From: a virus
Taxonomy: Duplodnaviria > Heunggongvirae > Uroviricota > Caudoviricetes
Reading direction: 5' to 3' (one strand)
Virus record (IMG/VR): IMGVR_UViG_2690316064_000002
DNA: 21,765 bases
A program made the translations under genes and the position numbers. Shown here piece after piece: positions 2,660-18,245 of this stretch (its first letter is position 1; each line of letters opens with the position of its first letter). Under the pieces are notes generated by a model, which was not told the origin of the DNA, did not search any database, and saw only the letters and a list, made by a program, of their open reading frames with translations.

Positions 2660-3018
2660 ACGTTCTCCAGTTCGGTGATTTTTATTCCAAGCCGTCCGCC
2701 TGGTACTTTCACACCACGAATTACGCGAATGTCATCGAATTGCTCGTCGTCTTCCGCAAATCCGGCGTGGATAAGGGAGTCGAGTAAACCTTTCAGGATG
2801 TTATCGAGGTCGCGGCGGCGGGAGTCTGGAACGTCTGCTATGACTTTGATGCGGAGTCGTGATTTGGTGAAAATATCTAACTTGAGTTGGTGGATGATTT
2901 GCTGAACGTCTTTTCGGTATTTCTGGCCTTTATCGCTGATGTAGTATTGGCTTCCCCGTCTTCGCCAGTAGGTATTCACCGACGGCGGGTATGGAAGCAC
3001 AAACTGATATTCGTTCAT
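2656..3018 (-). CDS. rusA: RusA-family Holliday-junction resolvase
   Basis: 120 aa with RusA-like motifs (LPYPPSVNTYWRRRG..., DVPDSRRRDLDNILKGLLDSL...GGRLGIKITEL); overlapping stop/start with neighbours. Confidence 0.88.
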   Translation of the reverse strand: MNEYQFVLPYPPSVNTYWRRRGSQYYISDKGQKYRKDVQQIIHQLKLDIFTKSRLRIKVIADVPDSRRRDLDNILKGLLDSLIHAGFAEDDEQFDDIRVIRGVKVPGGRLGIKITELENV

Positions 3019-3305
3019 GACTTAATCTTCCCCTCCTTCAGCAGTATCGCCTGCGTCCTGATTACGCCTTCGAGGTGGTAAAGTCTGGCGTCTTTGTTGT
3101 CGAGATTATGGGTGCGTCTGTCGATTTCATCGTGACACGCGCTACAAGCCCATGCGCCGATCAGGTCTTCAGGCTTCATTCCAGTTCCGCAAATTCCAGC
3201 CATCCGGTAATGTGCCAGAACTGTAGTTTCAGGATTGCCATTGCATATGCCGTAAATACGAACCTGGCATTCTCTGCCGCGTGCTTCTTTGCGTAGGTTA
3301 GCCAT
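3015..3305 (-). CDS. ybcO: YbcO-like protein (DUF1364, putative nuclease)
   Basis: 96 aa; ARGRECQVRIYGICNGNPETTVLAHYR...CSACHDEIDRRTH resembles DLP12 YbcO; same gene order as DLP12 (ybcO-rusA). Confidence 0.7.
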   Translation of the reverse strand: MANLRKEARGRECQVRIYGICNGNPETTVLAHYRMAGICGTGMKPEDLIGAWACSACHDEIDRRTHNLDNKDARLYHLEGVIRTQAILLKEGKIKS

Positions 3306-4018
3306 TAAGCAGCCTCCCCTGTTACTTTCAGCATTCCGTTATCGAGCAGCTTTCTGGTCAGCCACTGTTGACCACGCCCGGTGATTTTTGTGGTGAACGA
3401 TATCTGTATTCCGTGATTTGTGTTGACCGCTGTTTCTTTCACTGTGAAATAGCCGCGCTCCATATATTCCTGCATTGGCACATTTCGCCGGGAACCTGAA
3501 GCAATAAGGATTTTGTGATCACGCATCCACGCAAACAGTTTGTTTGGACCAATACCAACAACCTTTGCATAGTTTCCAATCAAAATTCCGCTGGCCTCGC
3601 CAACGCGATCGGCAAACTCAACTTTAGGTGCGGCAATTGCGAGCTGGTTTTCTAGTTGCATTTTCTGCTCAGCAAGATCAGCAGCAAGGCGTAACGCTTC
3701 TGGTAGCGTTTTTGGGATATTAACCGCAGCTTCTTCAAGCTCTCGCCAACGGTCAACAAGACGAGCGGTGAATTCCGGCGACAACTGGGCAACGACAATA
3801 ATGCTGTCGCGCTTACCTTGTTCTCCTTCGAAGATGTAATAGCTTACCGGTCGGCCTGCGGTGGGCTTCTCCCCCATTGGGGGAAAAGCTATTACACCTC
3901 GTCCCGCCAGTCGTTCAATAGATTGTTTCACCTTGTCATGACGACTTCCCACCAACTCAGCGATTTCAATGCTGGTCATTTTGATGGCGTTGCTATTTAT
4001 CAGCTCATTCATTGTCAT
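3305..4018 (-). CDS. Rha-family phage regulatory protein with C-terminal antirepressor (KilAC/ANT-like) domain
   Basis: 237 aa; N-terminus MTSIEIAELVGSRHDKVKQSIERLAGRGVI is a typical Rha N-domain; the C-terminal half resembles antirepressor C-domains; SD GAGAGG upstream. Confidence 0.75.
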   Translation of the reverse strand: MTMNELINSNAIKMTSIEIAELVGSRHDKVKQSIERLAGRGVIAFPPMGEKPTAGRPVSYYIFEGEQGKRDSIIVVAQLSPEFTARLVDRWRELEEAAVNIPKTLPEALRLAADLAEQKMQLENQLAIAAPKVEFADRVGEASGILIGNYAKVVGIGPNKLFAWMRDHKILIASGSRRNVPMQEYMERGYFTVKETAVNTNHGIQISFTTKITGRGQQWLTRKLLDNGMLKVTGEAA

Positions 4019-4042
4019 GTCCTCTCATATTGAAAATTCAGC

Positions 4043-4073
4043 AATAAAAAACCCAGCCGAAGCTGGGTTTGTT
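4043..4073 (-). terminator. Intrinsic terminator (CCCAGC-CGAA-GCTGGG hairpin flanked by A/T runs; potentially bidirectional)
   Basis: Minus-strand hairpin followed by UUUUUUAUU; lies between the P63C-like gene and rha. Confidence 0.6.
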
Positions 4074-4135
4074 AAGTTGTCAATGGTCAGTAGTAATGCA
4101 GTGAAGGAGGTAAACTTACGCTGAAGGATTTGTAC

Positions 4136-4156
4136 AAAAAAACCACCTGAAGGTGG
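4136..4156 (-). terminator. Intrinsic terminator (CCACC-TGAA-GGTGG hairpin plus U7) 8 nt after the P63C-like gene stop
   Basis: Plus-strand AAAAAAA-CCACCTGAAGGTGG; on the minus strand the hairpin is followed by seven U. Confidence 0.6.
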
Positions 4157-4163
4157 GTTACTG

Positions 4164-5177
4164 TTACTTGTCTGAATCATCCAGTTCGTCTGTTTTCACA
4201 TCCTCAAACCTTGGATGCAGGCGATTCATTTTTGCAATAAAATCTGAATAGTCGTTAGATAGCTTCATAATCGTAACGGTTGATGACAGATGCTCTCTTA
4301 ATTTTTGATATCCAATATTTGGCGTCAGCCCCTGAAACAACTTTGTACCTTTTGAGGCCTTTACGTTCTGCTTTTTAAGCTCCTCAAGGATGTTTGGTGC
4401 CAATCTCTTGTAGACGATATCATTTGTCAAAACGCCAAAATACTGAGGCCGGAAGCGGGGATTTTCCGGCGGGTATTCTAAGCCCCTTAACCTGAAAAGC
4501 TCTTCATAATAATCAGCAGGAAATGTTGTAATATAAGGTTGAATTTCCTTTGCGACAAAGGCCTCGAGTATTTTGGCGAGCGCATCTTTTTCTCTATCTC
4601 GCTGGTACCCCGTCGCTTCATCAACAAGCGCTATTATTCCGACTTTAGCTAATGAGCGCACCAGAATTTCAGCTTTCTTGGCTGTCTCTAACTGGTTTGG
4701 CCTGGTGATAGCGCCTGCCTCTCTTGCCTTTAAATAAACATCGCAGACAAGAGGTATTATGGATGCGTCATAACCTTCCTGGACGGAGCCAGTAATCGTC
4801 TTGTATTTGACCTTATTGATCACATCCATAACATCTTGATTTATATATTTTTTAAGGTTTGCAGCATCCATAAAAGCGGGCATATTGATCACCCCCTCTT
4901 CTTGAGGTGCTCTACCCCCTCTTTGTGGTCGGCCAAATGCTTTAAAAACAGAAGCTTGTGATATGATACGCCGTCCATTTTCGAGAACCGCGACATCTAA
5001 TTCCGCATCACCGATCTTTAACTTTCCCTCATTCGCAGATACGGGCAATAAAGCTTTTTCTTTTTTTGCGGCAACAGCCTTTCTTGAGGATTCTTTTCTT
5101 TGCTCTGCTGTCATTTTTGCCGCGCGTGCCTTACCGCCTTTGGCCTTCCCACTAACATCATCATTTTTCATGAGCAT
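4164..5177 (-). CDS. P63C-domain-like phage protein (basic N-terminal region plus conserved C-terminal domain); start uncertain
   Basis: Track ORF 4164..5231 begins at a TTG; likely start is an internal ATG (MLMKNDDVSG..., 5177). C-terminal region TFPADYYEELFRLRGLEYPPENPRFRPQYFGVLTNDIVYKRL... matches my memory of the P63C domain (assignment from memory). Confidence 0.55.
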   Translation of the reverse strand: MLMKNDDVSGKAKGGKARAAKMTAEQRKESSRKAVAAKKEKALLPVSANEGKLKIGDAELDVAVLENGRRIISQASVFKAFGRPQRGGRAPQEEGVINMPAFMDAANLKKYINQDVMDVINKVKYKTITGSVQEGYDASIIPLVCDVYLKAREAGAITRPNQLETAKKAEILVRSLAKVGIIALVDEATGYQRDREKDALAKILEAFVAKEIQPYITTFPADYYEELFRLRGLEYPPENPRFRPQYFGVLTNDIVYKRLAPNILEELKKQNVKASKGTKLFQGLTPNIGYQKLREHLSSTVTIMKLSNDYSDFIAKMNRLHPRFEDVKTDELDDSDK

Positions 5178-5202
5178 ATCTCGTGTTGTGATTGATAAGT
5201 CA

Positions 5203-5249
5203 ATCATACACATGCACGTTGTAACGTGCAATATTTAAATATGCACGTA
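5203..5249 (-). promoter_or_regulatory. Candidate promoter (-35 TTGCAC, 17 bp, -10 TATGAT) overlapped by an operator-like array of three TGCACGT(T/A) half-sites
   Basis: 18-bp palindrome TGCACGTT-gt-AACGTGCA (5213-5230) plus a third copy TGCACGTA (5242-5249); minus-strand -35 at 5231-5226 and -10 at 5208-5203. Confidence 0.35.
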
Positions 5250-5394
5250 AATTGCGAATCAGATAATGAGGAGACTTTCTCCCCCTTGCACTGACATCAT
5301 GGTATTCTGCTCAAAACTAAATTTCTGGAGCGTTTCGTTGGAAGGTATTTGCAGTTTTCGCAGATTATGTCGGTGATGCTTCGTCGCTGTCGTC

Positions 5395-5805
5395 TCATTC
5401 GTACCTCCTGTCGGTAAATCTGACACCCTGACCAATAGCCCAGGCTGTTGTGTACTCGATCAGACTTGCCATACGCTTCACGCTCATCTGCGCGCTGCTT
5501 TCGCGAATGTTGACGTATTCGCCTTCAAGCCCGGGCAAAACATCAGCTTCCTGCTTTGTTGCCACTGCATGACCGCTAATCAACAAAACCTTCCATTGTT
5601 CTGGTTTTAACCACTTATCGCACCATTGAACCTGACGTGCGATATCCGCCAGCATCGCGTGAAATTTTGCGTTCTGGTCAAGGTTGCGCTTGTAGTCAGT
5701 AATGCGGATGGTGACTGGCTTGTCTTTATCGAGAGGAGTTGCGAGGATGGCGTTGATTGCGGCTTGCTGTTGTTGCTTAGTTCGGAGGAAGATTGTTTGC
5801 TTCAT
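5395..5805 (-). CDS. ninB: NinB-family protein (lambda Orf/NinB-like recombination mediator), divergent from lambda NinB
   Basis: 136 aa; shared pattern with lambda NinB (QQ.AI.A, KP, RNLDQN.K, RQV.W...WL..E.WK); strong SD GAAGGAG; start 2 nt after the upstream gene stop. Confidence 0.65.
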
Positions 5806-17333: not shown

Positions 17334-18131
17334 ATGACCACTATTACCAAAGAACGTATTGAATTGTTCATTAAAAATCCGCTTGAAAACGGGCTTACTC
17401 GTGGCGAACAAATGGAACTGGCACGAATTGCACTGGCATCACTGGAACGCGAACTGATTCGCCACGAGCATGCCAAATGGTCTGACTCCACATTTGGCTG
17501 CGTTGGCCCCATTGGTCCACTGAAACACCTCTCAAAAGAGGCTCTGGAAGCCGCAGCCGAACCAGACGATCTCAGCTAGTGGGCTGATATGCATTTCCTG
17601 TTGTGGGATGCACAGCGCCGTGCTGGCATCAGCGATGCTGAAATTACCGCTGCTATGGAAGATAAATTGAAGATCAACATGGAGCGCCAGTGGCCTGAAC
17701 CAAAAGATGGTGAGCCTCGCTTGCACATTAAAGAACCCGGCAACTCTCCGGTAATTCCGGATGGTTTATCCACGGTATGCGCTGAGGCTTATCAGGTTGT
17801 AGGAGTTATGGCAGATGCGCTTGGTGTATTCGGTGATGCAGCAGTACAGAAAGTTCTGGATAACCTGTCACAGCAAAAACTTGTTCACAGAGATGTGCTG
17901 CCGTTCTCGCTTCCGGTGACTCCGGATGGTTGGATAAGCTGTAGTGAGCGAATGCCGAAAGAAACGGGTGACATTATTGTTGTTTCGGATGGCATTGTAA
18001 TGTCCGGGATTTCTTATTCTCGTCGTGACGGGTTCTATATAGCCGCATTGGAGTACGACGACGATGAGCCAATTGGCGGTGTAACCCACTGGATGCCTCT
18101 ACCAGAACCGCCTCGATTAAAGGAGCTATAA
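17334..18131 (+). pseudogene. DUF550/DUF551-like accessory gene interrupted by an in-frame amber codon (TAG at 17577-17579)
   Basis: Track ORFs 17334..17579 and 17589..18131 are in the same frame, separated only by TAG (...EPDDLS * WADMHFLLWDAQ...). The C-terminal WISCSERMPKE...GVTHWMPLPEPP looks like DUF551 (domain names from memory). Confidence 0.5.
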
Positions 18132-18245
18132 TAGTGAACTATTATATCTATTTGTATTAAAAGAGTTTTTATAAAATAAATCTCCCAAAGCATGTAAAAA
18201 CACTGTTAATCTTAACGTGTGTGAAACGTGAAGAGAGGTGTTGAA

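Follow-up and report, generated by a model that had tools for sequence, protein, structure and literature searches.

A putative operator array at the promoter of a mobile P63C-family gene in a phage of the 933W type

The repeat array and its promoter

The DNA analyzed here is a 21,765-bp stretch from a virus of the class Caudoviricetes (IMG/VR record IMGVR_UViG_2690316064_000002; the whole stretch is called the window hereafter). It represents a lambdoid early-right operon, encoded on the minus strand and 99.4% identical to the Shiga toxin 2 (Stx2) phage 933W over the stretch. In this operon, a gene of the P63C family is preceded by three copies of TGCACGT, located at positions 5213-5219 (plus strand), 5224-5230 (minus strand), and 5242-5248 (plus strand), and no other copy is present in the window. 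From its sequence and its distribution, we take this array to be a candidate operator-controlled promoter of a mobile phage gene; what would make it unusual is a motif that recurs across phyla and a gene product that is large, conserved, and uncharacterized.

The number of TGCACGT sites in the window is at chance level (3 versus 2.9 expected), but all of them are confined to 36 bp. Three copies within 40 bp or less were obtained in none of 1,000 first-order Markov simulations, and the analytic expectation for such a cluster is ~4e-5. Palindromes with 8-bp arms are by themselves unremarkable, with a simulated mean of 1.9 per window. Two of the copies build an 18-bp palindrome with perfect 8-bp arms (TGCACGTT-GT-AACGTGCA, 5213-5230), the predicted core operator, which lies at ~-17 to -34 relative to the predicted transcription start site. 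The third copy (5242-5248, ~-46 to -52) is regarded as an auxiliary half-site; with the copy at 5224-5230 it forms a second dyad, ACGTGCA-N11-TGCACGT, and relatives of the locus have a weaker (A)CGTGCA- or CTTGCA-like site at the same distance. An AT-rich spacer (5231-5241) just 5′ of the -35 hexamer is part of a 12-bp AT palindrome (5231-5242). Judged by its sequence, it is possibly a UP-element-like stretch, and an AT-rich block is retained at this place in relatives. A further perfect dyad, TGATTGA-TAAG-TCAATCA (5189-5206), is centered on the predicted +1 (~5196) and overlaps the -10 hexamer. It is particular to the Escherichia coli cassette described below, as relatives have a degenerate fourth half-site there (ATGCTCGT), and its folding as RNA requires that transcription begin 5′ of the dyad.

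Two natural variants of the array were found. A TTATAA center in two E. coli prophages results in a perfect palindrome, and in E. coli UTAK-8 (L002, NZ_CP168991.1; locus positions ~3100-3200) a 30-bp tandem duplication (ATATTTAAATATTGCACGTTACAACGTGCA) doubles the 18-bp palindrome, the two copies being 30 bp apart.

The palindrome covers the -35 region and most of the spacer of a sigma-70-like promoter on the minus strand. Its -35-like hexamer TTGCAC (5231 to 5226; 3/6 match to TTGACA) lies inside an operator half-site, and the -10 hexamer TATGAT (5208 to 5203; 5/6 match) follows after 17 bp, with transcription predicted to start near 5196. In sum, the hexamers have 8 of 12 consensus matches, and the promoter is missing from the list of a consensus scanner because the -35 hexamer matches in only three of six positions. 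The same layout recurs in relatives, which have TATAAT, TTTAAT, or ATTAAT at the place of the -10 hexamer. Downstream of the start site, the leader block TCACAACACGAG (5180-5191, minus strand), which is retained in 9 of 12 aligned loci, includes a probable GAG Shine-Dalgarno sequence.

The gene itself is read from ATG 5171 to 4164 and encodes 335 amino acids; an in-frame ATG at 5177 would give 337 amino acids. RefSeq places the start at ATG 5213 (349 amino acids), that is, within the putative operator of the very same gene. This annotation is probably wrong, over-extended by 14 codons, and ATG 5171 is the likelier start because it agrees with an alignment of 22 homologue N termini and has the conserved context GCTCATG.

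A reading of this DNA from sequence only had already pointed to three TGCACGT copies, two of them arranged as an 18-bp palindrome at 5213-5230, and with this the sequence agrees. It had also suggested a search for further half-sites; within the window, there are only the three exact copies, and sites with up to one mismatch are not enriched beyond them (13 versus 19.6 expected). The same reading had called the promoter good. The hexamers, the 17-bp spacer, and the overlap with the palindrome were confirmed, but with 8 of 12 matches and a silent scanner the adjective was too strong. Likewise, the P63C assignment of the gene was borne out by Pfam, while its start was put at 5177 instead of the likelier 5171.

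Conservation of the array upstream of P63C genes

To what extent the array is kept became evident from an alignment of 12 homologous regulatory regions, whose proteins are 33% (local) to 89% identical. Across these 12 loci, conservation of the half-sites TTGCACGT-N4-ACGTGCAT is complete or at least 90%, whereas the 4-bp center varies freely. The distance from the palindrome to the ATG is 61 to 64 nt in 11 of the 12 loci, and the half-sites are followed by a -10-like hexamer and, ahead of the ATG, by the leader block TTCACAACACGAG. The spacers between TTGCAC and the best -10 hexamer are 18 to 19 bp long in relatives, with the dyad within the spacer. The 84-nt noncoding stretch has an identity to the window of 0.55 to 0.75; the values are 0.56 to 0.76 for the coding sequence and 0.42 to 0.54 for the DNA 100 nt further upstream. 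A scan of IMG/VR with the pattern TGCACGT-N4-ACGTGCA gave 103 matches, 27 of which are located just 5′ of a P63C homologue; these 27 include six diverged homologues (33 to 89% identity).

In most other homologues, the place of the array is taken by a related motif, either ATGCAAGCAT or its complement, ATGCTTGCAT. These relatives range from Proteobacteria to Actinobacteria and Chloroflexi and have three to five copies of the ATGCAAGCAT motif within ~100 nt of the start codon, and these copies overlap the -35 region and +1. Minor variants of the motif are TGCACGCA, TGCTAGCA, and TGCCAGCA. The element GCAAGCAT was found in 46 of 76 upstream regions but in none of 76 control regions, and the density of TGCNNGCA is 6.65 per kb upstream of the genes, whereas the remainder of these loci has 0.36 per kb. 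The sites concentrate at positions -100 to 0, without a second cluster in the loci, and occur in both orientations and with varied spacing. In the relatives of class A, they cover the -35 region and +1. Furthermore, 13 distant loci have a TTGCAx -35 hexamer inside the motif, a -10-like hexamer 16 to 18 bp on, and the next site right after it, an arrangement not seen in shuffled sequences. Several loci contain an 18-bp palindrome, TGCAAGCAT|ATGCTTGCA, with the same TGCA-N10-TGCA frame as the TGCACGTTG|TAACGTGCA of the window. The class A palindrome TGCAAGCATATGCTTGCA occurs four times in IMG/VR, each time within 160 nt of the start of a tblastn match to a P63C homologue. A second class A pattern (R-site-N23-F-site) was tried in IMG/VR and set aside; its matches are mostly intragenic and due to chance, with 6 to 7 of 19 adjoining a P63C gene. 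The loci cover Proteobacteria, Actinobacteria, Chloroflexi, Acidobacteria, Planctomycetes, and Chlamydiae. Since the motif is found upstream of P63C genes across phyla, the array of the window can be regarded as the local version of a traveling cis element.

In about 18 of 77 loci, a divergent IS1-family-like transposase gene adjoins the P63C gene, and the array lies in the intergenic region shared by both (L029, L035, L036, L043, L046, L051, L058, L062, L063, L066, L073, L077, L078, L080, L082, L084, and L085). The transposase has ~290 to 310 amino acids, is encoded on the opposite strand, and has an N-terminal helix-turn-helix (MNKLxxxxRAQIL...). P63C may be a passenger or a regulator of IS1-like elements. 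Loci that lack this transposase have the motif to the same extent, and the idea that it marks the transposon ends was rejected, as the sites are found only at -100 to 0 and there is no second cluster. Apart from P63C genes, several copies of ATGCTTGCA or GCAAGCAT were seen in two IMG/VR loci with no P63C gene nearby (L198 and L200; ~2000-2200 and 3100-3300), where the downstream gene resembles a small terminase subunit, by eye only. In L194 and L210, an inverted motif pair precedes a gene judged, again by eye only, to encode an XRE-type helix-turn-helix protein. Proteins other than P63C may also make use of the motif.

Taken together, dyad symmetry, conserved half-sites around a free center, overlap with the core promoter, and co-occurrence with the gene irrespective of context and host are what was found for the array, and the term "operator-like" that the sequence-only reading had chosen is well placed with regard to the symmetry, the overlap with -35 and spacer, and the half-sites that are invariant in 12 loci.

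The one-gene cassette and its product

The gene and its array are part of a mobile single-gene cassette of 1.2 kb (4114-5320, minus strand), which was delimited by BLAST breakpoints and comprises an upstream hairpin, the operator/promoter, the P63C gene, and a terminator. In a comparison with VT2-Sakai, the backbone matches only at 3298-4113 and 5321-5413. Two unrelated E. coli prophages match the window at 4134-5318 and 4117-5320 with 98.9% identity. Besides the nin region, the cassette thus occupies a tail/baseplate region and, as a third context, a P22-like immI region, where it lies between DNA-transfer genes and arc/mnt/ant. In P22, this last slot is held by sieA. The breakpoints are sharp (4114-4134 and 5318-5320), and no other gene is common to the three contexts.

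An intrinsic terminator (CCACCTTCAGGTGG followed by T7; 4136-4156, with the hairpin at 4143-4156, minus strand) closes the cassette. It is present in all copies, and homology stops just past it. At the upstream edge, the hairpin GGGGAGA-AAG-TCTCCTC (5268-5284, minus strand) folds no better than shuffled sequences and is a possible weak insulator; four relatives have a canonical terminator at this place (GGTCGCAGAGATGCGGCC followed by T6), directly 5′ of the array, which suggests that the unit is insulated on both sides. Morons are autonomous promoter-gene-terminator cassettes in lambdoid phages, a concept of Hendrix and colleagues, and the unit can be regarded as such a moron placed inside a phage genome: it has a promoter-like element and a terminator of its own, a different insert occupies the same place in VT2-Sakai, and it is common to unrelated prophages. 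Expression from the repressed prophage, as expected of a moron, was not observed for the cassette. In the only RNA-sequencing data found, which are from lysogens, the P63C gene is completely silent, with no reads at all.

The order of the surrounding genes is NinB (5395-5805), a broken ninE, the P63C gene, two terminator-like hairpins, Roi, YbcO, RusA, NinH, and Q. The truncated ninE (5321-5409, minus strand; "NinE family protein, incomplete" in RefSeq) departs from the NinE frame at the start of the cassette (~5320) and runs into cassette sequence up to a stop codon, and VT2-Sakai has an intact ninE, a small open reading frame, and ant in the same slot. Roi carries the Pfam domains ANT and Rha (pRha). 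Just upstream of roi, a strong bidirectional terminator-like hairpin (AAACCCAGC-TTCG-GCTGGGTTT, 4049-4070) is part of the phage backbone and lies outside the cassette; VT2-Sakai has it too, and something similar is found after ant in a P22-like prophage. The outermost 42 bp of the cassette (5279-5320) are 93% identical to positions 3001-3042 of the prophage locus L005, which has other cargo at the same spot (tail-fiber C-terminal fragments and a Panacea-domain pair), and this stretch may be a common joint or recombination hot spot for cassette exchange. Elsewhere in the window, a further palindrome with 8- to 9-bp arms (TATAATAGTGAACTATTATA, 18127-18146) lies at the end of an open reading frame of 180 amino acids (17589-18131), before the next open reading frame.

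The gene product matches Pfam P63C (PF10546) at residues 203-293 with an E value of 9e-24 (84.3 bits versus a cutoff of 26.1), as do all 53 aligned homologues. More than 6,700 homologues of the family were scored, and the identity across phyla is 41 to 70%. The protein is assigned to PHROG 2384 (function unknown), with a weak PHROG hit to "anti-repressor Ant". According to an AlphaFold model of moderate quality (predicted local distance difference test score of 72.5), the N terminus forms two basic helices (GGKARAAKMTAEQRKESSRKAVAAKKEKA), followed by an alpha/beta domain modeled with confidence (residues ~46-137) and a helical C-terminal part that contains the P63C domain. Among the Foldseek matches, Bro, Bro-N, KilA, and antirepressor proteins are overrepresented, which is weak evidence, and the structure weakly resembles Bro/KilA folds and winged-helix-like ones. 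A Pfam scan of the 53 family members at E ≤ 1 gave no match to Bro-N, KilA-N, Rha, or helix-turn-helix domains, and the Bro-like idea therefore derives solely from the weak structural matches. Pfam also gave no recognizable effector-binding domain, sequence searches of the PDB gave no homologue, whether the query was the protein itself or a profile, an NCBIfam search gave nothing meaningful, and PADLOC gave only matches below threshold (PDC-M46A, E = 0.014). Neither functional literature on P63C nor a solved structure was found.

Six alignment columns separate the loci of the TGCACGT type from those of the TGCAAGCA type, and four of them (M22, K38, K39, and A42) are located in the N-terminal helices. 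This correlation, which has exceptions, is no more than suggestive.

Proposed autoregulation and its alternatives

The P63C gene is the only item common to all loci, and its product is thus the most economical candidate for the protein that binds the array. We consider it somewhat probable that the P63C protein of the cassette binds the array and represses its own promoter. What the sequences show is the layout, the nonrandom clustering, the portability of the cassette, the conservation of the sites with the gene, and their place on the promoter, whereas activity of this promoter, P63C as the binding protein, and repression as the outcome are inferred. In this model, sigma-70 RNA polymerase would use TTGCAC-17-TATGAT and start near 5196. 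Through its basic N-terminal helices and the weakly Bro-N/KilA-like alpha/beta domain, a dimer or higher oligomer of P63C would occupy the 18-bp palindrome (-17 to -34), assisted by the upstream half-site at ~-49. Bound P63C would exclude the polymerase and keep expression of the gene very low, whatever the phage or its regulatory state, and the flanking terminators would keep the unit autonomous from transcription of the host phage. The sequence-only reading had proposed a repressor-controlled promoter, either autoregulated or a secondary switch for a Rha-type antirepressor module. Of these options, autoregulation agrees best with an array that moves together with only one gene. The antirepressor switch, and with it the grouping of P63C and rha into one module, had to be given up: two terminator-like hairpins (4143-4156 and 4049-4070) stand between P63C and roi/rha, the cassette stops short of roi, at 4114-4117 on its upstream side, and cassette and array are also found without roi, in the tail/baseplate and immI contexts.

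Several observations do not sit easily with autoregulation. The -35 hexamer is poor, and the promoter was not listed by the scanner. The silence of the gene in lysogens is equally compatible with a dead or H-NS-silenced promoter, and under pure negative autoregulation a small amount of transcript would be expected to persist. About 20 of 84 loci have fewer than two copies of any counted variant of the motif, and where the IS1-like transposase is present, its helix-turn-helix could bind the motif as well. Finally, the correlation of residues with motif classes is uncorrected for phylogeny, and several loci of classes A and B are without the ARW signature.

The chief alternative, rather unlikely in our view, is that P63C binds the array but does not act as a simple repressor. 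It could activate from a dyad at ~-40 or switch the promoter in a MerR-like manner from a dyad within an over-long spacer, or the array could be its working target, for example, a nucleation site or a means of controlling the neighboring transposase, with autoregulation as a by-product. The copies at 5224-5230 and 5242-5248 do form a dyad, ACGTGCA-N11-TGCACGT, centered at ~-40, and the 18- to 19-bp spacers of the relatives hold the dyad; the silence in lysogens would suit a unit that needs a trigger, and the C-terminal two-thirds of the protein (41 to 70% identity across phyla) are conserved beyond the need of a plain repressor. Furthermore, about a quarter of the loci have an IS1-like transposase gene in divergent orientation on the other side of the array from P63C. 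However, sites over the -35 region and spacer, and over +1 in class A loci, are at classic repressor positions, the spacer of the window has an ordinary length of 17 bp, and neither a recognizable effector-binding domain nor a second cluster of sites is present. Binding by another protein, be it the phage repressor or Cro, the neighboring Roi/Rha-type protein, or a host transcription factor, seems improbable. The array is indeed part of the early-right operon and close to roi, HK022 Roi is reportedly a DNA-binding protein, and P63C has no recognized DNA-binding Pfam domain. Yet cassette and array are also present where roi is missing and where the phage is of another immunity type, roi is set apart from the P63C gene by two terminators, and further TGCACGT-like sites are not enriched in the window. 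In addition, the motif tracks the gene through at least six phyla, which makes a shared host factor or phage repressor implausible.

That the repeats act as a nucleic acid structure without a dedicated protein, be it in an RNA leader (hairpin or attenuator), as a cruciform, or as a site for recombination or mobility of the cassette, is very improbable, even though the perfect 8-bp arms could form a hairpin and the cassette is mobile. The palindrome lies 5′ of the -10 hexamer and would hence not be transcribed from this promoter. Its arms are kept as sequence, without compensatory changes, which argues for recognition by a protein rather than for pairing, and the sites of the relatives have mixed orientations and spacings. 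No Rfam match was obtained at E ≤ 1 in 3900-5500, and the array is located 70 to 100 bp inside the cassette, with no matching cluster at the other end. Hairpins of the 5′ leader (the dyad at 5189-5206 and GCTCGTG...CACGAG in relatives) had also been considered and were dropped, as the predicted start falls at or downstream of their 5′ arms and conservation is limited to the 3′ block. A chance palindrome without function is hardly credible. Although the TGCACGT count equals expectation and a window should by chance contain about two palindromes with arms of 8 bp, a cluster of three copies never arose in the simulations, the half-sites are invariant in 12 diverged loci, and all four class A palindromes of IMG/VR adjoin P63C.

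One known system of a similar spirit is the immI region of P22. There, operators for Arc and Mnt are located on Pant and Pmnt, and both repressors are small ribbon-helix-helix proteins encoded by separate genes. In both systems, a short palindrome, an operator in P22 and a putative one here, covers the core promoter of an antirepressor-type gene, the arrangement is self-contained and independent of the main immunity region, and one prophage even has the cassette beside arc/mnt/ant; the cassette differs in that the sole candidate binder is a protein of 335 amino acids without a ribbon-helix-helix or helix-turn-helix signature. With the regulators built from Bro-N, KilA-N, ANT (KilAC), and Rha domains, including Roi, P63C would share a putative N-terminal DNA-binding alpha/beta domain and a helical C-terminal domain, but none of the 53 members has a Pfam match to Bro-N, KilA-N, or Rha, and the C terminus is P63C and not ANT. 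As in the autoregulation of LexA, TetR-type repressors, and antitoxin operators, a dyad covers the -35 region and spacer, is flanked by extra sites, and is conserved amid drifting DNA, whereas P63C is a large and very conserved protein and not a dedicated small DNA-binding regulator. Like the morons of lambdoid phages, the cassette is a single gene with a promoter-like element and an intrinsic terminator, inserted between conserved nin genes and found in unrelated contexts. In contrast to them, it has a conserved operator array of its own and appears to be silent in the lysogen, and the P63C family and its cis element range far beyond enterobacterial phages and are sometimes paired with an IS1-like transposase. 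For an operator of a mobile gene, it is unusual that the core of the motif (TGCA-N10-TGCA, ATGCNNGCAT) is kept across phyla.

More tentatively, the view can be extended to the family as a whole. P63C might be a pan-bacterial family of sequence-specific DNA-binding proteins that is carried by phages and IS1-like elements and recognizes the core TGCA-N10-TGCA (ATGCAAGCAT, ATGCACGCAT, and TGCACGT variants), which would have traveled with the gene over distances between phyla. Gene and array would then be a minimal self-silencing module of a selfish or defense type in phage hot spots, the C-terminal activity of which might be released by a trigger.

In sum, phages of the 933W type have in their nin region an insulated and apparently silent cassette where Sakai-type phages have an antirepressor in the same slot, and the cargo of this slot is one difference between Stx2 phage lineages. 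Beyond these phages, the cis element tied to the P63C gene defines a candidate DNA target for a large and strongly conserved family.
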